From an uncultured Bacteroidales bacterium (GTDB lineage Bacteria > Bacteroidota > Bacteroidia > Bacteroidales > JAADJA01): a stretch of 64,000 nt of DNA. The notes beneath the pieces are model-generated. The model saw only the letters and a list, made by a program, of their open reading frames with translations, searched no databases and had not been told where the DNA came from. A program made the translations under genes and the position numbers. The stretch spans positions 72,765 to 136,764 of the forward strand of contig CAVPSZ010000023.1 of assembly GCA_963708435.1 (NCBI GenBank), read 5' to 3'. The first letter of the stretch is position 1. Every line of letters starts with the position of its first letter. This document shows, in pieces, positions 37,913-60,500 of the stretch.

Positions 37913-39400
37913 ATGAAACAGCTTTTTACACTATTTTTATTGGCATTACTGAATATCCCCAACCTTTTTACTCAAAATGTGAACGGGATAATAATTTCAG
38001 ATTCGGCAAATCTGACTGTTGTTAAAATTTGGGGAACCCATGAAGAAAGAGGATTGGCATACGGCTATCTGCTGGGAGAAGAGATCAGTGATATGGTAAC
38101 CAATTATATGCTGCCAATTTTGGGAACGCACCATGATGAAGCTCGTCAGGTTATTATCGATGGTGAAGATATTTCAATTGATCCGGAATTTGTGCAGGAG
38201 GCGATGGCCATGGTAGAAGGAATGAACATGGCTGGTACCAATTACGCAAATATAGATTATATTGACGGCCTTATATCCAATGCTTTTCTCGATATCCTGA
38301 AACTACTCGGACTGGCTGCCGATGGACCGGGATGCTCCAGCCTGATGAGCTGGGGAGACGCAACCTTAGGAACCGGCCTTGATGGAAAATCGGTTATCTC
38401 AAGGCACCTGGACTGGACACCCCATCCAACGCTGATCAATAACCAGGTGATGGCAATCCATTTTCCGTCGGAAGCAGATGAGCAGCCCTGGGCTTTGGCA
38501 GGATTTGCAGGGCAAATGAGTGTACTTTCGGGATTCAATCAGCATATCGCCGTCTTTCAGCACATGATGAGCGATTTTTCAGGACCGACCGTTCATCATG
38601 CCGGATTTGAACCTGTATGGCTCACCCTTCGGAAATCTATTGAAAAGCTCGACTTTAATAATGACGGAGTTAACAATACTCAGGATGTTTGGGATGCCGT
38701 AAATCAAAACACCATGGGCTATGCCGACGGATATATCCTAACCGCTTTGGCTCCTTCCACCGCCGGAGCCGACAGCCTGATCGCACTGGTAGCAGAGGTT
38801 ACACCTCAGGTACCCCTGATCACTTTCCGGACTAATTCATATCCGGATGCCATTCCCGGAGATAATCTTTACGCTGCAAATTATGAGATCAAAAGGAATA
38901 ATCATAACCATTATTGCCCAAGATATACGGCTGTCAAAGTTGCGTTAGGCGACGGAACAGGAATCGGACTGGAAGAAAACTGGCAGATCATGCGCGATTA
39001 CTCCAACTCTTCTTTCGGGAATATCCAGTTCATGCAGTTCAGTCCTGAATCGGATCTGTTCAGAATCTCTGTTTTCAGGGAGAATGCGCCAGCATACCAG
39101 AAACCACCGGTTGATTTTACCATTTCCGGGTTGTTTTTGCTGCCGGTTGGAATAACTAATCATAATCAAAATTCTGAAAGGTTTTTATTCCCTAATCCAG
39201 CCTGCTTTGAAATTCATGTCAGGTTTGATAAGAATGTGAAGGGAAGTAATTATCAGATTTATTCAATAGATGGTCATATTGTTTCAGAGGGAGAAATTGT
39301 TGAGGAATATCAAACTATTTCCATTCAACATCTTAAAACTGGAATTTACTTCCTAAAAAAAGACATTAATGCGGGAATTAAGTTTATTAAGTATTACTAG
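37913..39400 (+). CDS. secreted C45/Ntn-hydrolase-like protein with dockerin/EF-hand-like loop and T9SS C-terminal domain
   Basis: Signal peptide. GPGCSSLMSWGDATLGTGLDGKSVISRHLDW resembles the Gly-Cys autoprocessing site plus the RN.DW block of C45/choloylglycine-type Ntn hydrolases. LDFNNDGVNNTQDVWDAV looks like a Ca-binding loop. C-terminus FLFPNPACFEIHV...LKTGIYFLK. Confidence 0.45.
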   Translation: MKQLFTLFLLALLNIPNLFTQNVNGIIISDSANLTVVKIWGTHEERGLAYGYLLGEEISDMVTNYMLPILGTHHDEARQVIIDGEDISIDPEFVQEAMAMVEGMNMAGTNYANIDYIDGLISNAFLDILKLLGLAADGPGCSSLMSWGDATLGTGLDGKSVISRHLDWTPHPTLINNQVMAIHFPSEADEQPWALAGFAGQMSVLSGFNQHIAVFQHMMSDFSGPTVHHAGFEPVWLTLRKSIEKLDFNNDGVNNTQDVWDAVNQNTMGYADGYILTALAPSTAGADSLIALVAEVTPQVPLITFRTNSYPDAIPGDNLYAANYEIKRNNHNHYCPRYTAVKVALGDGTGIGLEENWQIMRDYSNSSFGNIQFMQFSPESDLFRISVFRENAPAYQKPPVDFTISGLFLLPVGITNHNQNSERFLFPNPACFEIHVRFDKNVKGSNYQIYSIDGHIVSEGEIVEEYQTISIQHLKTGIYFLKKDINAGIKFIKYY

Positions 39401-39597
39401 CGTGTTGTGCGGTTTAAATTCCATAAAATTGATTTTGTGAAACTTAGTGTCTTCGAGTCTTCGTGGCAGTGTAAAAATTTTGCCACAAAAACACCAAGGC
39501 TCAAAGATCCACCAAGAATAATTAAATTGGATATCAACCAATTAAAATGTGAAAAACAAATTTGATTCAAAATCTTGTGATCAAATCGCACAACACG
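39401..39597. repeat. 197-bp intergenic element bounded by 11-bp perfect inverted repeats
   Basis: CGTGTTGTGCG (39401-39411) pairs with CGCACAACACG (39587-39597), and there are further imperfect matches outward. The interior contains GTCTTCGaGTCTTCGTGGCAgtgtaaaaattTTGCCACaaaaacacc, a hairpin and word content typical of Bacteroidota intergenic repeats. That content produces the spurious ORFs at 39353-39541 and 39397-39591. Confidence 0.6.
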
Positions 39598-42464
39598 TTA
39601 TTACTAATTCTTCTGCCTCCGGTACGATTTTCTTCGTCACTTTTTCCTCGCCGCGCTTCACTACGATCTCCGTTTCCACATCGGGCTTCAGGTCGTTCAG
39701 GATGTTCATGAAGTCATAAATGTTATTGACCTCTTTGCCATTCAGAATGATAATAATATCATTTGCAATCAACCCCGCTTTTTCGGCTGGCCCTCCTGGT
39801 CTTACGCCCTGAATCTGAACACCCGGCTCATCGCTGCCGGCATAGGCCGGAATGGTTCCGAGAGATACCGAAGCCGCACCCTTGCTTGATTTTTGACGGT
39901 TTACTTTCACTTCCTGGTAAGTCAGCGGTTGTTCGGGTTTCATTATTTCTTTGATAAGTAAGGAAGAAAACTTTGTTATGCGCTGCATGCCCTCAAAATT
40001 GATGAATTGAACATCATCATTATAAGTGTGATAATCGTTGTGAACACCGGTAAAGAAACTTGCCACGGGAATCCCTTTCAGATAAAAGGAAGTGGCATCG
40101 GTGGGCAAATAGGGATCTTCTCCCATCACCAGGTTAAAACCCGAAACTACATTTTTCCTTTCGGCAAGTGACTTCCATTCTGTGGCAGATCCGATACCCT
40201 GCAATTCGAGGCGGTTATCTTTCAACCGTCCGACCATATCATAGTTGAGGTAGGCTTTGATCTTTTCTTTATCTATTGGTAATTTTGAAGTGAAGCTATT
40301 CGATCCGAGAAGCCCCAGCTCTTCTGCCGACCATAAGCAAAAGACGAGATTACTGGTAATTGAAGCGGGATTGTCTTTTTTCATCCCTGCGAAATATTCG
40401 GCAAGCTCGATGATCGTTACTGTTCCTGATCCATTGTCATCAGCTCCGTTGTGAGCTTCTGTTTTGTGTTCACCCACTGAACGGGAATTCACCTCACCCA
40501 ACCCCAAATGATCGTAATGAGCGCCAATGAAAATATAGGCAGCCTCCGGATTGTCAGATGGAATCATACCTACGATATTATTATCCTGTTCGATGATACG
40601 ATCAATTTTGGCGACAATCTTTACATTGGCGGCGGTTGCAAAGAGGTGTTCATTTACTTTTGGATCTCCATCTTTCAGTTTTTCCTTTAAAGCATCTGTT
40701 GCTTGATTCGATTTAGCAAGAATTTTATTCGCCAGTTCTTCGGAAATATTGATCGAAATAATTCCTGAAGTACCGACAATTTCATGACTTGTTTCGTCAT
40801 GGATTTTCGGAGATACAATCAAAATCGCTTTGGCGCCGTTCTGCCGGGCAAGCATTTGCTTGTAACCACTTGCAATGTTGCGCTCGAAAAGTTTTTCCTT
40901 TTCTTCATCCAGGCCTGAGGGAATTCCATCCAAGCACCATCACAATTTTATCCTTCACATCGATCTTTTCGTACGAATTGTATTCGTAGCCGGCACCATC
41001 ATTGATTTTCAATCCGTAACCTGCAAAAACCACTTCTGCATCAACCTCCCCATTCTCCGTTGATGAAAGCGGTATAAAGTCCTTATTCAATTCAAATTCT
41101 TTTCCATCCAAAACAAAATGGTTTGACCCTGGTTCGGATTTTATGTCTGCCGTAAAATCAAATGACCAGTAATAATCAGCGTGGCCGCCTAATGGCTGCA
41201 ATCCCTGTGCTTTAAAAATGCCGGTGATATAATCCGCAGTCATTTGAATTCCTTTGGATCCCGTCATGCGGCCACCTGTAGCATCCGAAGCGATATATGC
41301 CAGCTTTTCCTGCATTTCCGATTCGAGGATCTCAGGTTTGAACTGATAATTCAGGCTTCCGGTAGTGTTTTTCCGGAAAGGTGATTTTGCCAGTTGTTCC
41401 CGTGCAAAGGTATCGTTCCAGCCGGCAATAAAAAGCTGGGTTTTACCATCGGTGCACCGGCTGGAAGTCCAGACTAACTTTTTCCCATCCGGTGAAAAAA
41501 CCGGCAATCCGTCAAATTTGTCGGTATAGGTTACCCTTACAGGTTCCTTTAACCCTTCCGCATCAACCATGTAAACCTCAAAGTTTGTATAGCCAAGCTT
41601 ATTGGAGGCGAAAACGAGGTAATCTCCTGAGGGATGAAAGAAAGGTGCCCAACTCAAACTTCCGAAGTCAGTTAGTCTTTTTTCACCGGTTCCATCCACA
41701 TTAATGGTATAAACATCTGCCGAATGCCCGTCTTCACTAAACCTGCGCCAGGTAATTTTTTTCCCGTCATTTGAGAAAAATGGGCCTCCGTCGTATCCGG
41801 GAACATTGGTCAGTTGCTTTAGTCCGCTGCCATCGGCATTCATTAAATAGAGATCGCAGAAATAGGAGGGATCAACCTCTAACTTTTGTTGTTCTTCTTT
41901 GGTAAGCTTCGAATTATAGGCATAGCGGTTGGAACTGAAAACAATCAGCTTTCCATCCGGTGAATAAGAACCCTCAGCGTCATAACCCAGCTCAGTTGTG
42001 AGTTGTTTAATATCAGAACCATCCGGCATTGCGGAAAAAATATCCATTTCCGGTTCATAATCCCAGGCATATCTCTTTTTCTGTCCTGATGCCCTGAAAT
42101 CTAATTCTTCTTTTTGTTTTTTTCTTGCATCCGGATCGAGGTGACTGGAAGCATACTGTACCCTTTTGCCATTCCACTGAAAATAGGCACAAGTTGTTTT
42201 GCCATATCCGGGTGAAACCCTGTTTATATCACCAGTTTCAAAATCGAGAATATAGATTTGATAAAATGGATTGTCAGGCTCTTTTTCACTCTGGAAGATC
42301 AGGTAGCGTCCGTCTTCGGAAAAATATCCCTCACCCGAACGGTTACCGTCATAAATTAATTGGCGGGTATTTGAAAGAAATTTGTTTTCGAGGTTCTCAG
42401 TTTCCTGAGCAAAAGAAAGGATGGCAATAAATAGTGCCGGAAGCAAAAAAAATTGTTTTTTCAT
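39581..42464 (-). pseudogene. TolB-like beta-propeller + PA domain + M28 aminopeptidase + PDZ fusion protein, one frameshift near 40930
   Basis: 40905-42464 carries a signal peptide, PD40/WD40-like propeller repeats (SPDGK..VF.S.R) and the start of the PA domain. 39581-40933 carries the M28 block (GAHYDHLG...GADDNGSG...LWSAEELGLLGS) and a C-terminal PDZ. Removing one G from CTTGGATGG joins IVMVL-DGIPSGLDEEK. Confidence 0.8.
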
Positions 42465-42623: not shown

Positions 42624-43988
42624 ATGAATAAACTTTTCTTCAAATTAATCGCCTTCATTTCATTGAATTTGTTTTTGGTTTTAACAGTTCAAACTCAAAA
42701 TTATGTTACAACATATGCCGGAACGGGAAGCGCCGGGTTCGTAAACGGGGATACAAGCGTGGCAAGCTTTAACAAACCATTTGGTATTTGCATTGACCAG
42801 GAAGGAAATTTATATCTGGCTGATGCTTACAACAATTGTATCCGGAAAATAAGCAATGATGGAATGGTGACAACTTATGCTGGAACCGGGACAGCCGGCT
42901 ATTTGGATGGACCTGCTACAGAAGCAAAGTTCAATCAGCCGATCAATATTTGCCTCGATGAGGAAGGAAATATGTACGTGTCGGATTTCCTGAACCAGCG
43001 GATAGGAAAATTTCTTCGGATATGATGGTCACAACCATTGCCGGTACAGGCGTTGCTGGATTGCTTGACGGACCTGCTGAACAGGCAAAATTCAATTACC
43101 CGAGAGGTATTTGTCTGGATGATACCGGCAATATTTACATAGGCGACTCCTGGAATCACCGTGTCAGGAAAATCTCTTTGGATGGAATCGTTTCTACCTG
43201 GGCAGGAGGCGGAACGACCATAGGCGTTCAGAGTGTAGGAGATTATGTGGATGCCAGCGATACAGCAGCGCGATTCTATACACCCTGCGAATTGTCTATT
43301 GATTTATCAAACAACATTTTTGTCGCCGATGCCTATAATCACCGCATCCGGAAAATTGATCCTGAAAGAATGGTGACTACTGTTGCCGGCAGCGGATCTT
43401 CAGGACCGGATGCCGGAGGATTTCAGAACGGACCGGCTGACCAGGCATTGTTCAAAGTGCCAACCGCCTGCCATGTCAGTCTGACCGGTTCGATTTATGT
43501 TGGTGATGGACAAAACCAGCGGGTTCGAAAAATAAGCCCGAATGGCATTGTCTCAACCTTTGCAGGTTCAGGAGAAACCGGATTTGAAAACGGTCCTGAT
43601 TCGCTGGCAACATTTAATTTTCCCCGGAGGATGCGTGATGGATTATCAGGCTCACCGATTGTATGTTGTGGATTTTAACAATCATGCGGTAAGGATCGTT
43701 CATTTATCGGAAATAACAGGGATTGAAAATAAGGATACTGACAAGGAGTTTTCAATTTACCCAAATCCGGCAGGAAATGAAATTCTGATTAGAGGAGGAA
43801 TTGATCAATCCAATCTGACCATTCTTATTTATCGTGCTACAGGCCAATTGGTAAAAGAAGAACATAGGTATAAAGGAACGCCTATGGTGGTAAATATCTC
43901 TGATCTTGAAGGTGGGATATATTGTATTGGATTTCTCAGTCACAAGGATTTTTTGGGTTATAGAAAGATCATCGTTATAAACAAATAA
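42624..43988 (+). pseudogene. NHL-repeat beta-propeller protein with T9SS C-terminal domain, 2 frameshifts
   Basis: Three collinear fragments (42624-43025, 43022-43678, 43542-43988). Each has NHL repeats (F..P.GI..D..GN.YVAD..N..IRKI...G.V.T.AG.G). The tail is FSIYPNPAGNEILIRG...LEGGIYCIGF. Frame breaks are near 43010 and 43625. Confidence 0.8.
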
Positions 43989-44010
43989 AACTAACATGAA
44001 TTTCAATAAA

Positions 44011-44040
44011 AGAGGCTGTCCCAGTTTTGAGACAGCCTCT
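44011..44040. terminator. bidirectional terminator between convergent NHL gene and giant gene A
   Basis: Perfect 10-bp stem AGAGGCTGTC (44011-44020) / GACAGCCTCT (44031-44040), flanked by AAA upstream and TTT downstream. Confidence 0.75.
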
Positions 44041-45599
44041 TTGTAATAAGTTCATTTATTAAAATATCAGGGCAACGTACTGGTTTTTCCAGTGTTAGAC
44101 TTCCAGGTGTCATTCTTATCCTGGTTCTGCACCTGGCCATTCAAGTCATAATCGCCTGCGAAGATAACCGCGTTTTGCCGCATCGGCATTCCAGACAGCA
44201 TTCACATCCTGGTGTGATGGTGACCTGGCCGTCGGCATCGCCATCACCGGCAACCATACCAAACCGTGGCGGGCTGCTGCCAATTTGCTTATAGCCGGTA
44301 TGTGCCGCCATATGCTTTGTTAAGCGATCGGAGAAGTCATAGCATATAAACTTCACCATCCAATGTTGCACCCTGATTACTCAATAACAGCCAGATGATT
44401 GCGATGATAAACAACTACATAACAGTGAACCCGACAATTGCGGATTACCGATCCAGGGAAGATTAGTGCCATCCATATCAACGATCGATCCGTCATTTTT
44501 AAGGAAGGCTGCTTTCCGCCAGAATAAGAATCACTGTTTGCCGAAGCGGTAGGAGCTGAAGCATCCCGCCATTCGATCAATACCCAGTCGACAACATCTG
44601 CTGGCATAGTTGTTACCTCTTCATCTACCTGGATAATTCCATGGTGAACCCTGGTAAGGCTGCGATAAGCGGCAACAGATCCATTATCCCTGAGGCTTGG
44701 TTTCCATCAGGTCATTGCATTTCATCATAAGGACCTTCAAGGAAGATCTTCGCATCAAGCTGCTTCGGGAAAGTCGAGAATGGCTCAGGACCTGCCCATG
44801 AGCTTTGAACAACCGGAGAACACTTGCTCTGAACATAGAATTCGTAGTACGATTCAGGAGTTAAACCTGTAATGGTCAATGGTTTCGTTGAAACATTGGA
44901 AAGCATCGTACCCGTTCCGGGTGTAAAGCCAGCCGGGCCATATTCAACATTCCATTCCTGTTTCAGTATCACCGGGCTCCCAATCGAGGATAGCTTCGTA
45001 TAGGTAATATACCTGTTGATCAGCCCGGATGGGTTTGCACAAAATACTTCACCCAGGGTAAAATCACCAAAGGCATCGAATACGGTAAAGTTGGTGTAAT
45101 TGGGTGCAGTGGTGGAAACGGTATTAATATTGAACCCATCGCCCCGCATCATCCAAACAGACCCTACCGGATTAAATCCGGTGACATTCAGGGTGAGTGT
45201 AAAGGTAAAATTAATGCCACCGGTTTGCGAAATAATCCAGTAATGATCAGCATACGAGGTTATATTGCCGGGAATGGTTCCCGGGATCGTTCCTCCGATA
45301 TATTCAACATCCACCATACTGGTTCCTGTCAGGGTTACATAGTTGAATACCATAGGTCCATAGGTCGTGGCTGTTCCAACCGGGAAATATCTCGACCCGA
45401 TAGTATTGTACCCGCAGCGCAATCTGCCGTAAATGTAGGCCGTTGCTGATCCACCAGTGATAGTTCCTGAAGGCATTACAATAAATACATAAGTACCGGT
45501 TGTAATGATTCCTTCGGTAAGGATCAGCTCATAGTGAACCGTCACATTTCTGTTCAGCAAAATTCCATAGGGGTTGTTGACCCTGAAGCGGTAATAGCC

Positions 45600-48500
45600 C
45601 GTTTCATTACTTCCTCCGATGGTTTGCTGAACCGTACCTATAAAATGAATATAACTTGTGCTATAAACAAATATTCCGTTATTGATCCAGTTACCATGAA
45701 TGTAATGCTCGTATGAACCTGCATCGAAATGGTTCGTTATGGTCAGGTCACCGTAAATGGTCAGTGAACCGTTTGCAGTAATGGTCCCTGTCCTGGCAAA
45801 GACAACATGATAGAAATTGTTCGTGCCGAGAAGCAGGTTCTGTGAACCCACAAACCGTATCCTTGAAGTTCCGTGGACAAAGGTGCCGTTATTGATCCAG
45901 TTCCCATAAACATAATGATCGTAGGTAGCTGCATCAAAATGATTCAGAATGGTCACATCACCATAAAAATACAATGTACCCGTTGCTGTCACCGTACCGG
46001 AGCATGCAAAAATAACATGGTAGAAATTGCCTGCACCAATAAGGATACTTCCTGAACCGACGAAGCGAATGGTAGAAGTATTGTAAACAAAGGTTCCGTT
46101 GTTGGTCCAGTTGCCATACACATAATGGATATAAGGCCCGGCATCAAAATAATTATTGATGGTCACATCGCCATGAATGGTGAGTGAACCGGTTGCTACA
46201 ACAGTTCCTGTTCCGCCAAAAATAATATGGTAGAACTCATAATCGCCGATGTATACATTGCCCGAACCACTGAAATGGATGGTAGAGGTTCCATAAACAA
46301 ATACCCCATAATTGTACCAGTTGCCGTAAATGTAATGGACATACGATCCGGCATCGAAGTAATTATTGATGGTCACATCACCATAAACATACAATGACCC
46401 GGTTGCAGCAATGGTTCCCGTCCCTCCGAAAATGATATGGTAGAAATTACTGCCACCAATCAGGATGCTTCCTGTTCCGGTAAAATGAATGGTTGAAGTA
46501 CCGTAAACAAAAGTTCCGTTGTTGGTCCAGTTACCATAGACATAATGGACATAAGCTCCGGCATTAAAGTAATTGTTGATGGTCACATTGCCATGGAAGA
46601 TCAGTGTTCCGGTAGCTGTTACAGTGCCGCTTCCACCGAATACCACATGATAGAATTCCTCAGGATTCAGGAGAATATTTCCCGTTCCGACGAAATGAAT
46701 GGTAGAGGTTCCGTAAACGAAAATTCCATAATTGTACCAGTTTCCATAAATATAATGCTCGTAAGAACCGGCGTCGAAATAAGTGTTGATTGTAAAATCA
46801 CCATAAACCGTAAGCGAACCCGTGGCTGTTATTGTTCCGGTGCTGGCAAACAGGATATGGTAGAAATCGCTCTCACCGATCAGGATGTTGGTACTTCCGA
46901 GGAAATGGATCGTGGAAGTGCCGTACACAAAAGTACCCGTGTTGGTCCAGTTGCCGTAAACATAGTGAATGTATGATCCGCCACCGAAATTAGCCGGTGA
47001 TGTTCACATTCCCGTAAATGGTCAGTGATCCGGTTGCCGTGACGGTTCCTGTTCCTCCGAATATCACATGATAGAAGTTTCCGGCATTGACAAAGCTGAT
47101 CCCTGTTCCCATGAAATGAATGGTAGAGGTTCCATAAACAAAGACACCATTTACCGTCCAGCTTCCGTAAACATAATGTGTGAAAGCCCCGGCATCGAAG
47201 TAGTTATTGATGGTCACGCTACCATAAAAGGTAATGGAACCTGTGGCAACATAATTTCCCGTACCGGCAAAGACAACATTGTAAAATTCATTCGTGTTGA
47301 TATAGATATTAACAGTCGCCGAAAAATAAATGGTCGAAGTTCCGTAAATAAAGGTGCCGTTATTGATCCAGTTCCCGTATACATAATGCGCAAACGATCC
47401 GGCATCAAAGTAATTATTGATTGTCACATCACCCCAAATGGTTAGCGAGCCTGTTGCTGTTATGGTGCCCGTCCCTCCGAAAATGATATGATAGAAATTA
47501 CTTCCGCCAATCAGGATGCTGCCTGTTCCGGTAAAATAAATAGTTGATGTGCCGTAAACAAATGTACCGTTAACGATCCAGTTGCCATACACAAAATGGG
47601 TAAATGATCCCGCATCGAAGTAGTTATTGATGGTCACATTCCCATAAAAGGTAATGGAACCTGTGGCGGTGTAAGTACCTGATCCGGCAAACACAACATG
47701 ATAGAATTCATTCGTGCTTATGAATAAGTTAACAGTCCCGACAAACGTGATGGTTGATGTCCCATAAACAAAAGTCCCGTTATTGAACCAGTTGCCATAA
47801 ACATAATGAACAAAAGATCCCTGCATCGAAATAATTGTTGATGGTCACATCACCATAAATGGTTAACGATCCGGTGGCAAAAACTGAGCCTGTTCCTCCA
47901 AAGACAACATTGTAAAAACTGCTTGCCCCGATATAAATGTTCACTGTTCCAACGAAATAAATGGTTGAAGTTCCATAAATGAACGTTCCGTTGTTGGTCC
48001 AGTTACCATAAATATAATGCTCGTATGAGCCTGCATCAAACGTACTGTTGATGGTCACATTCCCATAGAAATTAAGCGAGCCTGTTGCAATGAAAATTCC
48101 GGTACCGCCAAAGATCACATTGTAGAAATCGTTTTGGGTGATGGTTATATTCCCGCTCCCGATAAACTCAACGGTAGAGGAACCATAATCGAAAATGCCA
48201 TTATTTACCCAGTTTCCATAAACACTGATGGTGTATGTCCCTGCATAAAAATTGGTAGTAATGGTAATATCACCATAAATGGAAATTGATCCGCTGGCAT
48301 AGTATGTTCCCGTTCCGCTGAAAATAATGTTATAGAAGGTACTTGCGCCGACATAAACGGTTCCGGTTCCAACAAAATTAACAGTAGAAGTCCCATAAAC
48401 GAATGTGCCATTGTTGATCCAGTTTCCATAAACATAATGGACAAAAGACCCGGCATCGAAATAATTGTTGATGGTCACATTGCCATAGAATGTCAACTGC

Positions 48501-49060
48501 CCTGAAGCAATTACAGTTCCGGAACATGCAAAAATTACATTGTAAAAATTGCTTGCACCAATGGTAATATTTCCGGTTCCACTGAACTGAATGGTCGATG
48601 TTCCCTGAACAAAGGTTCCATTGTTGATCCAGTTTCCATAAACATAATGGGTAAATGCTCCGGCATCGAAGTAATTATTGATGGTAATGTTGCCATAAAT
48701 GGATAAAGAACCCGTTGCTGTGTAGGTACCCGATCCTGCAAAAATGATGTTGTAGAAATTGCTGATGCTGATATAGTAGGTTGCCGTACCCATGAACTGG
48801 ATGGTGGATGTGCCATAAACAAAAACCCCGTTGTTGATCCAGTTCCCATAAACATAATGGGTAAAGGAGCCTGCATTGAAATGATTGTTAATGGTCAAAT
48901 CTCCATAAACGGTCAATGATCCGGATGCTGTGATGGTGTCAGAACCGGCAAAAACAACATTGTAAAAATTACTTACACTGATAAAGATATTCACAGTGCA
49001 GTGTGAAATAAACAGTTGCCGTTCCTGGAATGAAAATGCCGTCATTGGTCCAGTTTCCGC
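45600..49060 (-). repeat. tandem array, about 16.5 copies of a 210-bp (70-aa) coding repeat
   Basis: Unit consensus: YGTSTIhFxGTGxIxIGxSNFYHIIFGGTGTxTATGSLTIYGDVTINNYFDAGSFxHYVYGNWxNNGTFV. About 6 copies lie in ORF 47780-49045, about 4 in 46990-47826 and about 6.5 in 44712-46928. Confidence 0.85.
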
Positions 49061-50516
49061 CCAGGGTGATATTGTGGTTGTTCACATCCAGCGTTCCGGC
49101 AATGATATGGATATTCCCGCTGATGCTGATCGCTTGTGAAAGGGTAACCACCATTCCCGGTGCATTGATGGAGATATTGCCCGGTGTGTTTTGAACCAGA
49201 GCATCACCCGTAAACTGGTTTGAGGTTCCTGTGAATACATAATGTGCTCCTGAGTAATAGGTTCTTGACCCGGTTACCTGAATATTACCAGTGTTGTTGC
49301 TAACTGTAATACCAGCCGAGGAACCAACATGAATGGTACCTCCGGCAACGATCCTGAAATGTCCTGCACCATTAACAACCGCTGTCGAATGCATGATCAG
49401 GGTTCCGTTGACAGTGAGGGTATCACCTGAAATGATTCCCAAATGCAACATCATTCTGCACTTCAAGGATACCACCTGCATCGACGGTCACATTTCCGAA
49501 ATCAACGGCAGCATCAACACTGATTGTGTGTCCGTCACGAACAACTGCAAGTGGATTTGGACATACAATACCGGCTGAAGAAGGATAATCAACAGCATCC
49601 ACCCAGGTGGTTCCGTTAAAGTATTCCCATGTTGCGATGTTATCCCAATCCCCTGAGTTTTTAGTTCGGTAGCGGTCTCTTCCTTCAATGGAGATTTGGA
49701 TTGTATCCGAAGATGCTGCTCCAGACCAGTCAGGCATACAAGTTACTCTTGCCAGTCGCCTGAACCAGGTGGTTGCGGTTAAAACACTCCCGTATGATAA
49801 CCCCTCTGAGTTGCTTCCCGGAATGTCATTGAACACCATGTTATCTGAAGAGGATTGCCATTTATATTCCAGTATACCAATATGTCCTGTGGCAGGATCA
49901 ACACTGGTAAATGAAGCTGGAACCGTCCCGAAGCAGATGGTTTGAGAGGAAGCAATAGTTCCGCCATCTGTGGGATTTGAGCAAGGCGCTCCTTCCAGCG
50001 TTGTAAAAGTTACCGGCCCTGCCCATGAACTAACTGTATTCTCATAGCAGGCTGATCTGACATAGAAATCATAGGTTGTATTTGAACCCAGGCCAAATAA
50101 ACCAAAATTATTGCTGTAAACATTGCTGATCAACGTTCCTGTTCCCTGGGTAAATCCAGTTGGTCCGTACTCAATGTTCCAGGCTGTCTCCATATTAGCC
50201 TGCGTCCAGTGCAGAATAGCCGAATTTTCAGTGGTATCCGAAACAGATAAAGCTGTGGGTTGTGTGCAGGTATAAACTGAAACCTGTTTTATCGTGGTAT
50301 CGGGGCAACCTTCTGCTGAGATCAGGATTAGCCTTGCATTATAAGTACCGGCAGCTGGATAGGTATGGGTAAATCCATGATTATAGGTGTAATCTGTTAC
50401 ATTATCACCATTTACGTCCCAGCGATATTGTGTGTTTCCATTTGTGCTGGTTGAAAGGTCAGTAAATGTGGTGCTATTTCCAAGCCATACATTATTTGCG
50501 CTGAAATCAGCCTGCG

Positions 50517-51882
50517 GAGTATGGCAGAACTGGTCGAGAAGCGTCAAACTCCATTTGCCGTTTTCATCCCTTATCCTGAGGAAAAGCATGTGGTTGCCCA
50601 TGATGAGCTGACTAAGGTCAACTTCGAAATTCAGGTCAGTCACATTCGAACTGGGATTAGGTATCGGAATTTGAATTCCTGAACCAATACCCGGATCGGT
50701 ATCAATGAAATACTCGGCCTTAGTTAGTAAAGGATTTAAAACGTTAACAACCTGTTTCAGGAATGGACGCCTGGAGGTCAGGCTCCATTTGCCTTCTGTA
50801 TCCTTCACCCTGACATAGAGATTATGAAATCCATCCGGTAAGGAACTCAGGTCAATGCTAAAATCGAGAACTGCATTGGATCCATTCGGGGTAATGGGAA
50901 CCGAAGTACCCTGTCCGAAACCTGGATCGGTATCAAAAAAATACTCAGCCTTAGTGAGCAAAGGATTTGGAACGGTAACAATCTGTTTCAGAAATGGACG
51001 CCTGGAGGTCAGGCTCCATTTGCCTTCCGTATCTTTTACCCTCACATAGAGATGATGAAACCCATCAGGCAACGAACTCAGGTCAATGCTAAAATCAAGA
51101 ATTACATTGGATCCATTCGGGGTTATGGGTACAGAAGTACCCTGTCCGAAACCCGGATCGGTATCGAAGAAATATTCAGCCTTGGTGAGCAAAGGATTTG
51201 GAACGGTAACATTCTGTTTCAGAAATGGACGCCTGGAGGTCAGGCTCCAATTGCCTTCTGTATCTTTCACCCTCACATAGAGATGATGAAACCCATCAGG
51301 TAAAGAGCTCAGGTCAATGCTGAAATCGAGAATTGCACTGGATCCATTCGGGGTAATGGGCACTGAAGTTCCCTGTCCGAAACCCGGATCGGTATTGAAG
51401 AAGTACTCTGCTTCAGTAAGCAAAGGATTTGAAACTGTTATCACCTGTTTCAGGAATGGTCTGCGGTTGGTAATGCTCCATTGCCCCTGCTGATTTTTAG
51501 TCCGCACATAAAGGTGATGAAATCCATCTGGCAATCCGCTGATATCAATGCTGAAATTAAGGTTGGAAAGTTCGGGTCCGGCAGTAATGGGAACATTGGT
51601 TCCGTTGCCCGGCCCGGGATCGGTATTAAAGAAGTATTCAACTTTCGTTAAATCGTACAATGGTGTGGTAACTGTGTTTTTATAAAATGCACGATTATGC
51701 GTAAAGCTCCATACTCCATTCTCATCTTTTGCCCTGACAAACAGTCTATGAAAACCGTCGTTCAAGCCGGAAATGCTGGTGCTAAAGCTGAAATTGCTAA
51801 GGTCGGGGGCGGGAGGTGTCACAGCCACCTGGGTTCCGGCTCCAAATCCCGGGTCGGTATCGTAGAAATACTCCACCTTCAC
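50517..51882 (-). repeat. six tandem 77-80-aa 'EYFxDTDPGxGxG' repeats; the middle three (50716-51408) are near-identical 231-bp units
   Basis: The repeats are read directly from the 867-aa translation. The antisense ORFs at 50855-51049 and 51086-51280 differ in only 5 of 64 residues, confirming the 231-bp period. Confidence 0.85.
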
Positions 51883-52046
51883 GAGATTCTGCGCCAGCGC
51901 ATTCCCGGCCATAACCAGCATCAGCAACATCAGCAGCAAAAAGCCTGATGGTGCGGGCAATGGTCTATGGTTCTTCCAATTATTTATCATAACTATATCT
52001 TTTTTTATAATTAACTTCAAAGGCAACTCCTTCGAAGTGAAAACGA

Positions 52047-53980: not shown

Positions 53981-56900
53981 TTAGGGTATTTGAATACCCA
54001 AGCCTTCATAAAGAATCCAAAGTTCATTTTTATCCTTGTTATCCACCTGTCCATCGAGGTTAAAATCACTTTCGAGATAACCTGTTTTTCCCGCCTGGAT
54101 CATCCACCTAACGGTTTTGTCAGAACTGTTTATTTGACCATCCGGCAAGGCATCGCCCGGGATCATTCCATAAATGCCGGGTGCAATTTCGGTCTGAGCA
54201 TCTGTGCCATAAGCCTGGCTTGGTCCGGAAGTAAAATCGTAGGCAAAGGTATCATTGCCGTTGAAAATCATCGGGCTTGCCGACATAATCCCGAGGTGAT
54301 TCCTGTGCCAGACAATAACATACAATTGGTGAACAGGAGAATAGTTGAATAGCAGGAGGGAAGAACCGTCCAATCCGACCACTTTTCCGTTACTCAGAAG
54401 AAAGGCCGCCTTTTTTGCAACAGTAGTTGCACTGGTTGCCGTTTCGGGCCCACCGGGAGTTTCACGAAGCTCAATCACCACCCAGTCAACAATATTGGGT
54501 TGTGGGATCAAGGTTACGGATTCAGTTCCCGGGTAATGCCAGATAGCAGCAGGATTATTATAGGGTTGCTGGAGTGGTAAATAGTTCATTAAGTTGAGGC
54601 TTGTATTCATAATTACCGGACCGGAGGCTGGTTTATAATCTCCGCCAAGAATTACATCCAGATCAACCTTAAAGCTGGAAAGGACAATGCTGACTTTATA
54701 ATCTTCTACTTCGCCATTGATTACAAGTCCATTAAAACTGATCGTCCCGCTATAATCCCTGAACCTGAAACGGGCATAGGAAGTTCCAACAGAAGCTGTA
54801 CCCGGAACATTAAAGGATAAATTATTAGCACCTGCAACAAGGGGAGTACTGGTGAAAATATGTTCACTCGCATCAGCCCAGTCATTGTCGAGGTTGAAAT
54901 CCATCCATGCATCGAGGTAACCATTTACTGAAGCATTTACGGTTATAGAAACCAAAGAACCTTTCTGAACCGAAGCTGGAATAGTTACCCCATCCTCATC
55001 ATCCCCAAAGGAGGGATAAATGCAATCCGAGTCATCACAATTGGCATTTGCACCGGGTTGTCCGTCGGGTTCGGGATCAACCTGACTCCCTAAGAAAATA
55101 CCGGGGACATAAGTGTGGCGGGCGCCATTGAAAGCGAGTAGTTGTTGGATATTTTCCAGTAGCATTTTCAGGTGCATCTCCAAAATCGTATTCAGGATCA
55201 GCTTCCTGGATGAAAACTGTATAATCTTCCACTTCGCCATTCGCAACCAAGCCCGTTGAAACTGATGTTTCCACTGGCAGTGCGGAATCTGAAACGAACA
55301 TAGGATTGTCCGACTGAAGCATTTGCCGGAATCGTCAATGAAAGGATGTTTGATCCTGCAGTCAAGGCTGTATTGGTAAAAATATGTTCTCCGGCCTCGG
55401 CCCAACTTCCATTTAAGTTAAAATCCATCCATGCATCGAGGATTCCACTGACCGAAGCGGTAACAGTAATTGAAACATTCGTTCCCTTAGTAACGGAAGA
55501 CGGAAGAATAACCCCATCCTCATCATCACCCAGTGAAGGGGCCAGACAATCGTTGTCATCGCAGTTGGCTGACGCGTTAGGCTGTCCATTGGTTTCCGGA
55601 TCAACTTTGCTTCCAAGGAAAATACCGGCAACGATGGTATGTCGTGCGCCATTGTTAGCCAACAGAGTAGGATAAGAAGGATCAGGAGCATCGCCAAAAT
55701 CAATATTTCCCGGAGAGGAGGCTGTGATGTTTACTTTATAATCTTCCACCTCACCATTGAGTACAAGTCCGTTATAACTTATTGCTCCGCTATAATCCCT
55801 GAACCTGAAACGGGCATAGGAAGTTCCGGTAGAAGCTGTGCCCGGAACATTAAATGATAAATTATTTGCCCCTGCAACAAGCGGAGTACTTGTGAAAATA
55901 TGTTCACCTGCATCAGCCCAATCCTGATCAAGATTGAAGTCCATCCATGCATCAAGGTACCCATTTACAGATGCAACAACCGTTATTGAAACCGAAGAAC
56001 CTTTTGCAACCGAAGCAGGAATCGTAACTCCATCTTCATCATCACCAAAGGAAGGATGAATACAATCCGAATCATCGCAATCGGCATTAGCACCGGGTTG
56101 TCCGTCTGGTTCGGGATCAACCAAACTTCCGAGAAAAATACCAGGAACAAAAGTGTGACGTGCTCCATTGAATGCAAGGGTTGTCGGATAATTTCCGGAA
56201 GCATTTTCAGGAGCATCCCCAAAGTCGTATTCCGGATCAGCTTCCTGGATGAAAACCGTATAATCTTCCACTTCCCCATTCGCAACAAGTCCGTTGAAAC
56301 TGATGTTTCCATTGGCAGTGCGGAACCTGAAACGAACATAGGATTGTCCGACTGTGGCATTTGCCGGAACTGTAAATGTAAGGATATTTGAACCTGCCAG
56401 ACAAAGAATGAATTGGTGAAAATATGTTCTCCGGCGTCGGCCCAACTTCCATTCAGGTTAAAATCCATCCATGCATCGAGGAATCCACTGACTGAAGCAG
56501 TAACAGTAATTGAAACATTCGTTCCCTTAGTAACCGAAGACGGAAGAATAACCCCATCCTCATCATCACCCAAAGAAGGAGCCAAACAATCGTTGTCATC
56601 GCAGTTGGCTGAGACGTTAGGTTGTCCGTTGGTTTCAGGATCAACTTTACTTCCAAGGAAAATACCTGAAACGATGGTATGCCTTGCACCATTGTTAGCC
56701 AAGAGAGTAGGATAAGAAGGATCAGGAGCATCGCCAAAATCAAGATTTCCCGGAGAGGAAGCTGTGATGTTTACTTTATAATCTTCCACTTCTCCATTCA
56801 ATACAAGTCCATCGTAACTGATGGTTCCGCTATAATCACGGAACCTGAAACGGGCATAGGAAGTTCCGGTGGAAGCTGTGCCCGGAACATTAAATGATAA

Positions 56901-57349
56901 ATTATTTGACTCCGGCAACAAGCGGAGTACTTGTGAAAATATGTTCACCGGCATCAGCCCAGTCCTGATCAAGGTTAAAGTCCATCCATGCATCAAGGTA
57001 ACCCATTTACAGAAGCAACAACAGTAATTGAAACTGTAGAGCCTTTTGAAACCGAAGCAGGAATTGTTACTCCATCTTCATCATCACCAAAGGAAGGATG
57101 AATGCAATCCGTATCATCACAATCAGCATTGATACCGGGTTGTCCGTCGGGTTCAGGGTCAACCATATTTCCCAGATAAATTCCCGGAAGAATGATATGC
57201 CTTGCACCATTGAAAGCTTGGGTTGTTGGATATTTACCTGCCGGGTTTTCAGGCGCATCGCCATAATCTTCCTCTTCAAGCTCAGGCAAAGGAACCTCGG
57301 CAGGAACCTGATCTAGCAAATCCGATTCCCAATCAGATAGCCGGTTCAT
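53981..57349 (-). pseudogene. GEVED-domain repeat protein B (~1120 aa) with HRNHL C-terminal module, at least 4 frame breaks, no detectable signal peptide
   Basis: Collinear fragments 56993-57349, 55983-56996, 55198-56445 and 53981-55405. Five ~173-aa domains each start (D/Y)(F/Y)GDAP(E/D) and end NGEVEDY(K/T)V. The C-terminal 230 aa is homologous to the end of gene A. Confidence 0.75.
54698..57268 (-). repeat. five tandem GEVED domains in alternating b-a-b-a-b subtypes (about 1040-bp super-repeat)
   Basis: Subtype b: ...NGARH..PGI.LG..VDPEPDGQPG.NA.CDD.DCI.PSFGDDEDGVTIPASV. Subtype a: PSYPTLLANNGARHTIV.GIFLGSKVDPETNGQPN.SANCDDNDCLAPSLGDDEDGVILPSSV. The antisense ORFs at 55346-55675 and 56413-56715 are near-identical with a 1040-bp offset. 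Confidence 0.8.
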
Positions 57350-57533: not shown

Positions 57534-60500
57534 TTAGTCTTTCATTTTAACCATTTTGCCTTGCTCGATAATTCCTGAGCTCGCATCAGTCAGCGTGATA
57601 AAGTAGAATCCATTCCTCAGATTGACGAATATCCAGTTCAATTCCGCCTGTGACGAAGTTGACAGTGTAATCTGTCACCAGTTTTCCACTAACATCAAAC
57701 AATTCAATCTTGCAGTTTTCACCATTGTTATGAACCAATTCGACATAGACCTTATCAAAAGCAGGGTTGGGGTAAATGTTCAAGTAAGTCGATTCACTCT
57801 CAATGCGTTTGATATTGTCACTCTGGATGACTTCTGGTGAGCTGATTTCCTCGACCTGGTAATCGTTATATGTCGGGGTATTATTCAGCAATGAAACCGC
57901 ATAATTGGAATTATAAGATTTCTTGTCTATGATCATTTCAAGCTGGGCCTCATCAGATGATGTTAAAGCCTCAGAGCCATTGATGGCCATTGACAGATCG
58001 ATGGTCAGAAGGGCTTTTAAATCAGCCTCATCCTGGTTTCCGGGAATGAAGTTATTCAATACTAAACCAGCGTTGACGAAATCAGAATTCCTGTAGTAAA
58101 ATCCATACTTCAGTAAAGCTTTTTCGTTTTCAGTCAATGAAGAATTGTCCAGAATGTATTGAGTAGTTCAGCATCAGCATTTTCATAGGAAGCCAGTATC
58201 ATATTGGCAAGGTTGAACTGATCTTCTGATCCGATAAGGATTTCGAGATAGTTTCCGGAAAGGTTATAGGTTCCGCCGGTACCTGATAAAGGATCCTGAA
58301 TTTGCTTATAATGGTCACAGGTATAGGAAATGTTCAGATTTCCCTGTGAAGGCATGTTGAAAATCTGGTGGCCACATGATGCGGTGGAGTGGTATGGCCT
58401 GTTGCTTGTAATTTGAACCTGAGGCCATGAAATATTGAACATCCCGAAGTTGTCAGCAACCGTAATTGAAGTATTGCTATTGATATCAACGGCTGAGTTG
58501 TAATTGCTCCATAGGGTATTAAGACCGGGACTGCTCAGTGTTCCAATATTCCCGGAGTGACCCTGAACATTGATACCGACATTGTTATAATTATAGAGGA
58601 AATTGTTCCTGATTAACGGCAACGGGGTATTTCCGATGAAAGATTTGAAATCCATCGAAGTATAGCTATCGGTCACACAATTGCTCGAAACCTCGCTTAC
58701 AGCTGAGTTAAATTCACACCAAAAATACCACGGGTGTTGTTATAATTGCGCATCTTGATCATATTGCAGGTGATAAAGGTGCGGTCGTTTTTACCCGGGC
58801 TGGAGAAGTAAATTCCGTTATATCGCAGTCATTGATCTGGTTGTTGCTGATCTGGAAATTTTGCGAATTTACTCCGATGATTCCATACCTGAAGCCATCA
58901 ATCTCATTATTAACTATACTAACGTTCTTTGATTTGCTTGCATAAATAGCAGAGAAACTGTTATACTGATTGGTGTTGTTCGAGATTTTATTATTGTTAA
59001 TCTCAATCACCGGGCCAGCCGTATTAAGAACGTAAATGGTTGATGGTGAGAATAACGCTGGTTCATTCACTGAAATTTTATTATTCTCAACATTGGTCGG
59101 GAATGAAGCCGATTCGATCAATACAGAATAAGACATATCTGTAAATACATTTTCCGAGATCAGCGACCCGCCATTAAACTGGAAGATGCCATAAGTCCTC
59201 GGGAATGTTGCCCCCCAGGTATTGATAAATTCATTCTGCGATGCCTGCTCAGTAAGTCGTGAAGCATTTGTGGTATAGATGCCATAAGTCGCCTGGTTCG
59301 TGACAAATGGATACACAGAAATGCAATCCCATGACGGGAAGAACTGCTCTGTTACAAAGTGGTTATCGCTGATCGGGTGATTGAAATTATTATTGTTTTC
59401 AACCCTGACTCCATAATTACAGTTCGAGAACAGGTTGCCTGAAACCACACCATCTGATCCTTCCTGGAAATATAGAGCTACTTCAGCATTTTTAAAAGTA
59501 GAGGTCGTTAATGATATTATCGAATTCACCGGGACCGAATGAAGCTTAACCCTTTCCATGTTTTATCAATGTTACATGGTCTGAACACGGAGTTGGTTGC
59601 ACGCAAATAAGCGCTGTCCTGGAACACAATTCCAGCACATTCACCAAACACCACATCTACCGTAGTAATGTCGAGGACTGCTCCATTATTGACGGTTACA
59701 ATCACATTATCGTCAATATAGTATTTACCATCCCAAACCACATCTGAGCTGTAAGTTATTGGCGCAAGTATCTTCACAAAAAGCGAATCCGCATAAGCAA
59801 AACAGCACAAACCATTATCTCCGATCATAAATGGTGGAATACCTCCTGGATAATTAACCACTCCATTTACAATTGCATTCGGAATGAAAATCCCATTGCT
59901 TGCCACCAGGTTATAAGTTTCCTGGTTATTTATACAAAAAGTTAATGTGTCGGTGCAATTCACCATATCAAAATGATAGAAATCCATTTCGTTGGCTGTA
60001 TTTACCAGGTTAAAGGAAATTGTCGAATCACATCCGCAGGGAGTTTCAGCCGAAACGATGATGGTAACTGTGGTATCAACAGAGAGACAGAATGCGCCGA
60101 TAGAATCAACACAACCAAAACTGTTTTGTACTCTCGACTGAAATCTGGTAATTGCCAGTAAGTGCAGGACTATAAGCCAGGTTTTCACCTGATCCTACAA
60201 AGTTTCCATTGGAATACCAGTTAATAAACGGATAAGCCGAAGGATAGGTATTCAATGGCGGCTGCCAGTTAAGTGCCAATGGAATGTAGATATTAAAAGT
60301 ATCAAGCAGGCAGATGTTATCACAACCAGTCGGGAAGAGACTCAGATCAGGTTTTGCATGGATGAAGCCAGCATTGGCCGTTGCAAAACAGCCATTCGAC
60401 TTATTGGTGACCGTGACACTGTAGAACCCGGGGCTCGAAGCAATGATGGAAGGTGTCGTGGCGCCATTGCTCCAGAGATAACTAAACAATGTAGGATTGT

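Follow-up and report, generated by a model that had tools for sequence, protein, structure and literature searches.

The window analysed here is a stretch of 64,000 nucleotides from an uncultured Bacteroidales bacterium (GTDB lineage Bacteria; Bacteroidota; Bacteroidia; Bacteroidales; JAADJA01; GenBank assembly GCA_963708435.1, contig CAVPSZ010000023.1, positions 72,765 to 136,764), and all coordinates below are positions in it. Its minus strand carries, at 51990-44067, a giant gene that is frame-broken in the assembly and that, when read through, encodes a multidomain secreted surface protein of about 2,600 amino acids (aa). Within this gene lies an array of 16 tandem units, each exactly 70 aa long, which runs from 49028 to 45666 on the minus strand. 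We consider it probable that the array serves this uncultured, environmental Bacteroidales bacterium as the beta-helix stalk of a giant protein that is exported by Sec and stands outside the cell or on its surface. Such a stalk is of a well-known kind among giant bacterial surface proteins; the repeat family itself is unnamed.

The array occupies residues 1000-2119 of the restored read-through frame, and its units have the consensus YGTSTIxFxGtgnixigxsnFYhviFagtGTxtAtGSLtxYGdvTInnyFdAGsyxHYvYGNWxNNGtFV. They stand in perfect register, with no amino-acid insertion or deletion (indel) across all 16. At the DNA level, Tandem Repeats Finder (TRF) reported two stretches with a 210-nt period, one of 10.5 copies at 45865-48060 (64% matches) and one of 2.7 copies at 48408-48978. 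When a hidden Markov model (HMM) of the unit was run against the six-frame translation of the window, each intact unit obtained 95-118 bits (E 1e-31 to 1e-38) and a degenerate partial unit was detected on each side of the array (49029-49178 and 45606-45665); no further units were found in the window beyond these. Pairwise identity of the units is 49-83% in protein (mean 63%) and 57-80% in DNA (mean 66%). Among the units, codon positions 1 and 2 are 77% identical as against 45% for third positions, and therefore the copies are old and have been maintained by selection on the protein.

The gene is represented in the assembly by five successive minus-strand open reading frames (ORFs) in differing frames (49423-52026, 48969-49481, 47780-49045, 46990-47826 and 44712-46928), which together make one continuous protein sequence. 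Deleting one base at each of the four junctions yielded 2,436 codons without an internal stop, and the read-through protein is 71% identical over its length to an intact protein of 2,494 aa, P0020, which is encoded identically in one NCBI metagenome-assembled genome (MAG) and in two independent Logan assemblies. The gene begins with an ATG at 51990, which lines up with the beginning of P0020, and a tblastn search with P0020 placed its end, '...GKTSTLP' followed by TGA, at 44067-44069. The four breaks, all given for the minus strand, are as follows. A GGG run that lies just upstream of the array holds one G too many (49437-49440), unit 1 has one extra base (49000-49002, where the unit-HMM match switches frame between 49000 and 49001), another GGG run, within unit 6, likewise holds one G too many (47821-47823), and unit 10 has an extra T (46992) that creates a TAA (GGC-T-AAT). 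All four extra bases are missing from each of four related genomes (L004-L007); at the site of the fourth break L006 reads CACCGGC-AATTTCGG. A read-index search reported runs from related populations, with 5-11% of the words, and their contigs were used for comparison: cave-metagenome contigs 85-95% similar to the gene omit one base at three of the sites (49437, 47821 and 46992). The short-read MAG relatives L006 and L007 are open across 6.2 kb. Homologous genes are split in other MAGs, into four open pieces in L010 (JAWKKM010000010.1) and into two each in L004 and L005. These broken relatives are probably long-read assemblies, and the pattern of intact and split homologues fits a difference in sequencing technology rather than in biology. 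As the relatives lack the four extra bases and the short-read genes are intact, the breaks are probably sequencing or assembly errors and not biological.

The frame changes could also mean that the gene is a true pseudogene in this genome, inactivated by frameshifts. There are at least 13 of them, of which about 9-11 are packed into the 650-nt stretch of the C-terminal module, together with a possible in-frame TGA at 44712-44714. By our own count from the ORF list, the main body has about 0.55 frame changes per kb and the 3′ end a far greater density, compared with about 0.16 per kb elsewhere in the window, and the extra T at 46992 lies outside any homopolymer. However, save for the candidate TGA all disruptions are 1-nt indels and no nonsense codon occurs in the 2,436 restored codons; amino-acid conservation inside the frame pieces remains high, and the comparison with L006 gives a ratio of nonsynonymous to synonymous differences per site (pN/pS) as low as that of a pair of intact orthologs. 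Breaks of the same kind affect at least four further genes of the window, the short-read relatives are intact, and the MAGs that are probably long-read are broken as well. Indels without substitutions or nonsense codons are the mark of read or assembly errors rather than of decay, and we regard a pseudogene as unlikely, although not negligible. Programmed frameshifting or phase variation was rejected, since the break sites are unconserved and the four relatives lack the extra bases.

The comparison with L006 gave a pN of 0.086 and a pS of 0.61 for the array (dN/dS about 0.07), a ratio no worse than that between two intact orthologs. The N-terminal part of the protein has a pN of 0.22 versus 0.086 in the array, which is the best-conserved part of the protein and is under strong purifying selection. 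Units 1-6 match units 1-6 of P0020 one-to-one at 76-90% identity and match its other units at about 60%, and the last unit of the array matches the last one of P0020 at 81%; this positional match argues that there was no concerted homogenisation. P0020 has 14 units, and the two extra units of the array are explained by duplication of a two-unit block, as suggested by the unit pairs 11-12 and 13-14 (79% and 73% identical) and by a 420-nt period that TRF reported at 45949-47228. The length of the stalk thus differs between species in two-unit steps.

An earlier reading of the DNA letters and ORFs, the sequence-only reading, had described about 16.5 copies at 45600-49060 with a strict 210-bp period and 50-80% identity. 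The coordinates and the copy number are right, with 16 full units and a degenerate partial unit at both ends, and so are the unit consensus, the period and the identity range given there. Its view that the copies are old rather than recent agrees with the positional match to P0020 and with a pS that is near saturation. The description is accurate in all of this; it left unreported the strand, the frame breaks and the enclosing gene of about 2,600 aa.

No match of the array to Pfam or NCBIfam was found at E up to 1. The Pfam model Beta_helix (PF13229) detected two canonical proteins in the same window, with E 3e-12 on ORFs 1405-3009 and 58759-59559, so the negative result for the array is meaningful. 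Sequence-profile searches of the PDB with a four-unit profile and with a broad profile returned noise only, such as a leucine-rich-repeat protein and the left-handed helix of GlmU (E 0.04-0.4), and no domain passed. We found no description of the 70-aa repeat in the literature. A word-indexed search of 5.8 billion proteins reported 19 matches, the four close ones being fragments from Bacteroidales MAGs, and the same kind of search with a broad 80-unit profile reported six short fragments only. The unit profile was more productive against 1.84 billion cluster representatives, where it matched 446 at E≤1e-3, 126 at E≤1e-10 and 27 at E≤1e-30. The matched proteins are mostly giant proteins of Bacteroidota, many of 2,000-6,000 aa and with up to 39 matched stretches, and 225 stretches were confirmed in GTDB species genomes.

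Two groups can be told apart among these proteins. The tight one, with 69-90% unit identity, comprises seven species of Bacteroidales, all uncultured, whose habitats are groundwater, springs, lakes and soil, and strict 70-aa spacing in long unbroken runs is found only there (16 units in the window protein, 14 in P0020, and 8-9 in P0021, P0022 and P0026). The looser one includes Paludibacter, Algoriphagus, Saprospiraceae, Chitinophagaceae, Pontibacter, Adhaeribacter, Chitinophaga and Flavobacterium; outside these a few matches come from Chlorobiaceae, Ignavibacteriales and Blastocatellia. Beyond the tight group the units are 72-80 aa long and stand in runs of 2-5, with other segments between them. 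A type IX secretion system (T9SS) sorting domain of type A ends the protein in 90 of the 148 best family representatives. For P0021, P0022 and P0026 this was confirmed with Pfam and NCBIfam, and for all others with an HMM that was built locally. In view of this share, the unit is a building block of T9SS cargo proteins.

Units of the wider family, which we refer to by the motif 'GNW-x-NNGTF' and which include those of P0018, a T9SS protein of Pontibacter liquoris, and of loci in Algoriphagus, Chitinophaga and Pontibacter, are clearly homologous to those of the window. Their consensus reads ...STV.FNG...Q.I....F.N..F.G.GTKTA.G.L...G..TI....F.AG.FTH.V.GNW.NNGTF, and the domain that follows the repeats is the same as in the window protein. 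They differ in containing lysine and little tyrosine and in their interrupted units of 72-80 aa, in contrast to the lysine-free, Tyr/His-rich units of exactly 70 aa in the window; only the window protein and a few Bacteroidales MAGs have unbroken arrays of 8-16 units. With its tandem units of about 70 aa that match the profile, in a large secreted protein, the array belongs to this unnamed 'GNW-NNGTF' family. The repeat is therefore not unique to the window gene; the window array is the most regular member of a family of 446 clusters, a sequence family that is undescribed, yet falls within a familiar class of protein.

To describe the fold we gave AlphaFold2 (AF2) units 11-14 and a shallow alignment that was made up of P0001 and paralogous segments in register. 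The best model is all-beta, with a predicted local distance difference test score (pLDDT) of 90.6 and a predicted template modelling score (pTM) of 0.84, and units 15-16 showed the same strand pattern in another construct (pLDDT 75-88). DSSP assigned 11 strands to each unit, of which the pairs 19-21/23-26 and 44-46/49-51 can be read as single kinked strands, leaving nine. These would group into three non-equivalent, three-stranded rungs laid out as strand, Gly turn, strand, Gly turn and long strand: rung 1 at residues 5-30 (26 residues; TIHF / ILI / SNFYHVIF), rung 2 at residues 31-55 (25 residues; TVTA / LTI / VTINNYFD) and rung 3 at residues 56-74 (19 residues; VHYV / WTN / TFV). This rung count is based on the DSSP pattern only. 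By hhalign, with partitions into three and into four rungs, the rungs are not detectably copies of one another (probabilities ≤33%), and the 70-aa unit would therefore be a super-repeat of three unlike rungs. Taking the 0.48 nm per rung of general beta-helix geometry, the 48 rungs would make a rod about 23 nm long, which the flanks would extend to about 27 nm.

A search of the PDB with Foldseek reported no significant neighbour; the best match was 3p4g, at E 0.096, and TM scores were ≤0.32 throughout. The top matches are all beta-solenoids, namely an antifreeze adhesin domain, HMW1, tapirins, EtpA, tailspikes and lyases, and a structure search of a viral library reported generic beta-helix and tail-fibre models (TM ≤0.39). 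AF2 has been reported to over-predict beta-solenoids for repeat sequences, in models that are confident yet unrealistic (PMC11795689). The solenoid of the model might likewise be an artefact of the repeat input, the array being folded otherwise or partly disordered; two of the five models with pLDDT below 50 and the lack of a close structural neighbour would be in keeping with this. However, the units are diverged (mean identity 63%) and not perfect copies, their length is invariant over all 16 units and across species, and the array is under strong selection. The sequence also gives signs that are independent of the model: hydrophobicity has a period of two, conserved Gly residues are evenly spaced, Pro is nearly absent, and the composition is beta-prone with little charge to bury. 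These features are hard to square with disorder, and we find an artefact very doubtful. A fold of the beta-solenoid class is thus likely, as judged from the model. The sequence-only reading had anticipated a beta-solenoid rod with about three turns per unit and had found no named family for it. The rod is borne out at the level of prediction by the all-beta model of units 11-14 and its recurrence in units 15-16, the three turns correspond to the rungs of 26, 25 and 19 residues drawn from the DSSP pattern, and Pfam, NCBIfam and the PDB sequence and fold searches all lacked a significant match.

The architecture predicted for the array resembles that of the right-handed parallel beta-helix (PbH1) proteins (Beta_helix PF13229, NosD PF05048 and pectate-lyase-like), in that rungs of about 19-26 residues, each of three short strands, are stacked, Gly and Asn stand at the corners, and aliphatic and aromatic residues are piled up inside. 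One might then take the array for an enzyme built on a right-handed beta-helix, such as a polysaccharide lyase, hydrolase or epimerase of the pectate-lyase type, in line with its predicted three-stranded rungs of about 23 residues and with weak Foldseek matches that include alginate lyases, a pectate lyase and tailspikes. Yet no Pfam Beta_helix, NosD or pectate-lyase model matched the array at E up to 1, although the two Beta_helix proteins of the window were detected. Catalytic residues of PbH1 enzymes were not found either: no Asp, Glu, Lys or Arg is invariant among the units, charged residues (Asp, Glu, Lys and Arg) make up 3.7% of the array and lysine is lacking. The array is far longer and more regular than the PbH1 enzymes, with a fixed super-repeat of 70 aa that would hold three unlike rungs, and its 16 near-equivalent units leave no unique groove for an active site. 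We consider a catalytic role highly improbable, and compare the proposed stalk below with known giant adhesins.

Filamentous haemagglutinin (FHA), HMW1, EtpA and autotransporter passengers or Pmp repeats are likewise giant extracellular proteins, whose adhesive part is borne or made up by a long rod of repetitive beta-helix. Foldseek lists HMW1 and EtpA near the top among the neighbours of the array, at non-significant values (E 0.2-0.6, TM <0.3), and the Pfam family Fil_haemagg (PF05594) reached only E 0.2 (12.8 bits, with a cut-off of 21.5), and E 2.4 in the region before the array. Unlike these two-partner-secretion (TPS) adhesins, which belong to another phylum, the array protein has no TPS domain and no beta-barrel translocator, and most members of the array family are exported by the T9SS. 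SprB and RemA of Flavobacterium johnsoniae are closer by phylum and share a length of thousands of residues, a Sec signal peptide and a repetitive body. SprB has a type B sorting domain. The array repeat is unrelated to that of SprB in sequence, without a match to the SprB repeat, and the window protein ends in a different C-terminal module of about 230 aa. A comparable role is on record for SprB, which forms surface filaments (PMC9870892). The best PDB match of Foldseek, region IV of the ice-binding adhesin of Marinomonas primoryensis (3p4g; E 0.096, TM 0.24, 17% identity), is similar in being a narrow solenoid with flat Thr/Asn-rich faces inside a giant adhesin. Its fold needs Ca2+ bound by Asp/Gly-rich turns, whereas the array has 2.4% Asp and no such motif; with no Asp/Gly Ca2+ turns and no significant structural match, the array does not belong to the Ca2+-dependent ice-binding or RTX solenoids.

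The composition of the array is unusual. Its 1,120 residues include no lysine, 0.4% Arg and 3.3% Asp plus Glu, for the total of 3.7% charged residues, and 0.3% Pro; Phe, Tyr, Trp and His make up 24%, Gly 15%, Thr 14%, Asn 10% and Tyr 10%. The invariant columns of the unit hold only S, F, Y, G, A, T, I and W. The lysine-free, tyrosine-rich character is common to P0020, P0021 and P0022 (Tyr 8-10%), in contrast to the wider family (Tyr 2%, Lys 2.4%). At positions 1, 22, 41, 49, 58 and 60 the unit has Tyr in place of the Thr, Asn, Ser or Ala of the wider family, and because Tyr and His replace such residues these extra positions are probably surface-exposed. The rod might, then, be a working surface and not a spacer only, with ladders of exposed Tyr, His, Thr and Asn that bind an ordered substrate such as a crystalline polysaccharide, a mineral or ice, or that pack laterally into fibres. 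Such a surface, which would be compatible with the stalk, is suggested by the lack of lysine and near lack of charge together with the wealth of aromatic residues, by the restriction of this composition to a tight Bacteroidales sub-family and the substitutions at the six Tyr positions, by the array being the most conserved part of the protein, and by the ice-binding solenoid and the cellulose-binding tapirins among the best Foldseek matches. Those matches are non-significant, though (E ≥0.096, TM ≤0.3), and the outward-facing residues are assumed; the habitats (groundwater, cave, sediment and soil) are not suggestive of ice, and packing constraints alone would give high conservation. We see a working surface as a minor possibility, an unlikely addition to the role of the rod as a stalk.

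The other parts of the gene, all on the minus strand, are in keeping with a secreted multidomain protein. It begins with a putative Sec-type signal peptide at 51889-51990 (MINNWKNHRPLPAPSGFLLLMLLMLVMAGNALA|Q), with a basic n-region, a hydrophobic core and an A-x-A site, which was called by eye from the sequence; P0020 begins alike. Six tandem units of about 77 aa with the motif EYFFDTDPGxGxGT follow at 50527-51885, recognised by a 231-nt TRF period (50689-51561, 83-88% matches) and by the motif, which recurs every 77-78 aa and extends into ...DGFHxLYVR.KD..G.WS. They had only sub-threshold matches in Pfam (Big_13, GbpA_D3 and Y_Y_Y) and are probably immunoglobulin (Ig)-like beta-sandwiches. 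They are a second repeat of the gene without family assignment. The three middle copies are 83-88% identical in DNA and are therefore far younger than the 70-aa array. A PKD domain at 50287-50523 (Pfam PKD E 2.1e-7, PKD_4 E 7.8e-7) and a first fibronectin type III (Fn3) domain at 50005-50262 (Pfam fn3 E 3.7e-7) come next. The region before the array, at 49029-49680, has irregular beta-strand-like segments and ends in the degenerate partial unit (...NITLGGNWTNDGIFI), to which the weak match of the unit HMM at 49029-49178 is due. The region has conserved counterparts in P0002, P0003 and P0020, matches no Pfam family, and is probably an N-terminal cap with the first rungs of the solenoid.

Downstream of the array, the degenerate last partial unit and a domain of about 200 aa occupy 45039-45665 and align with P0004, P0007, P0011, P0012, P0020 and P0021. 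This domain has no match in Pfam, and it also stands after the repeats in distant family members. A second Fn3-like domain at 44766-45038 had a sub-threshold Pfam fn3 match (E 0.056); its equivalent in P0020 matches the first fn3 (50268-49996) at 42% identity, and the two are paralogues. In the AF2 construct of units 15-16 with the C-terminal domains, the post-array domain, the second Fn3 and the start of the C-terminal module had pLDDT below 50.

The C-terminal module of about 230 aa (44070-44765) was pieced together from three frames against P0020 and P0004. Its pattern, LEGPY...DWVL.EWR...HRNHL...GDGDxDGQ...GDYDxxGQV.NQDKND, contains two dockerin-like Asp/Gly loops of the form DxDxDGQ, and despite the frame changes in the window copy its frame pieces are up to about 80% identical to the ortholog. 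GDGDGNGQI and GDYDMDGQVKNQDKND in the P0020 module look like dockerin loops by eye only, as no significant HMM match places the module in the dockerin family PF00404. No match was found in Pfam or NCBIfam, and the intact module of P0020 had no Pfam family at E up to 5. An intact copy, 39% identical, ends the neighbouring, otherwise unrelated GEVED gene (53984-54670, minus strand). At least 119 protein clusters contain the module. Most of them come from Bacteroidales MAGs, many are about 296 aa long, and five also carry a Cohesin domain (PF00963). Being common to the GEVED protein and to cohesin-bearing proteins, it may be a shared anchoring or sorting module that was previously undescribed. 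It is conceivable, though quite unlikely in our view, that the rod is a functional surface, binding an ordered substrate or assembling laterally into fibres or a sheath, and is fixed by pairing of the dockerin-like module with cohesin-bearing proteins of the same bacteria; if this were true, environmental Bacteroidales would have a cellulosome-style surface assembly beside or instead of T9SS type A attachment.

Taken as the stalk that we favour, the array would work as follows. The Sec pathway would export the giant protein by means of its signal peptide, and the protein would end up outside the cell, as suggested by the T9SS cargo among most of its relatives and by a window rich in T9SS cargo genes. 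Each unit would fold as three parallel beta-helix rungs, with Phe, Ile, Val and Trp stacked within the helix and Gly and Asn at its corners. The 16 units and their degenerate flanks would amount to about 50 rungs and form a rigid, unbranched rod of about 23-27 nm, spacing the N-terminal six Ig-like repeats, PKD and Fn3 from the C-terminal domain, Fn3 and dockerin-like module. The C-terminal part would presumably tie the protein to the cell surface, and the lysine-free, nearly uncharged surface of the rod, rich in Tyr, His, Thr and Asn, may also be adhesive. The repeat with its register, selection and family, the intact orthologs and the order of the domains are observed, the fold is a prediction, and the number of rungs, the length of the rod, the spacer or adhesin role and the anchoring are what we infer.

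Several observations weigh against this model. The T9SS sorting domain (Pfam PF18962 / TIGR04183) is absent both from the window gene and from the intact P0020: of the marks of T9SS type A cargo the window protein has the signal peptide, by inspection, and in searches with Pfam and NCBIfam sorting domains of type A and of type B were both absent from it and from P0020. A search for RNA runs listed none. With at least 13 frame disruptions in total, the copy in this genome may be non-functional. On the structural side, pLDDT ranged from 90.6 down to 45.7 among the five AF2 models (77, 69, 47 and 46 for the other four), sub-block comparisons by hhalign did not separate three from four rungs per unit, and neither Foldseek against the PDB nor the viral library gave a structural neighbour at TM 0.4.

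Giant repetitive surface proteins make up a large and mostly unannotated share of Bacteroidota genomes, and they probably decide what these bacteria attach to in sediments, groundwater and soils. The present analysis provides an alignable definition of the 70-aa unit that marks hundreds of protein clusters, mostly T9SS cargo. It fills an annotation gap and could possibly become a Pfam entry, without overturning current ideas. The family could be studied in cultured carriers (Algoriphagus, Chitinophaga and Pontibacter, among them Algoriphagus mannitolivorans DSM 15301 and Chitinophaga filiformis DSM 527), and the regular, uncharged and aromatic array of 16 units is a good structural target, possibly also for the design of protein materials.

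The assembly appears to hold many single-base indel errors, a practical flag for its users. Other genes of the window that are split likewise include a PD40/M28-PDZ gene (39581-42464), an NHL gene with a T9SS tail (42624-43988), the GEVED gene (53981-56996, in three pieces) and a Beta_helix/NosD and Ig_7 gene (58759-61155).

Within L001 1-9945 (JAIOZS010000015.1), P0020 has as its neighbours three sulfotransferase genes in tandem, a flippase of polysaccharide synthesis and a glycosyltransferase, a context that differs from that of the window; no conserved gene neighbourhood and no operon-level clue were found in the comparison of the two, and the giant gene therefore has no fixed set of partners. 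T9SS cargo genes with a Por_Secre_tail domain in the window encode a canonical right-handed beta-helix protein (1405-3009), a GH31 glycosidase with laminin-G (15813-19292), a 495-aa protein without family (37913-39400) and the NHL-repeat protein at 42624-43988, and a TamB homologue lies at 7425-11750. Between the giant gene and the convergent NHL gene there is a perfect hairpin with a 12-bp stem, AAAGAGGCTGTC-(loop)-GACAGCCTCTTT, at 44008-44042 (no strand assigned). The hairpin probably acts as a bidirectional terminator, and the consensus terminator scan missed it because no T-run of five or more directly follows the stem. Matches limited to this 35-nt stretch (loose ends 44005-44042) come from many unrelated metagenome contigs, and the hairpin is thus a terminator-like element of wide occurrence.

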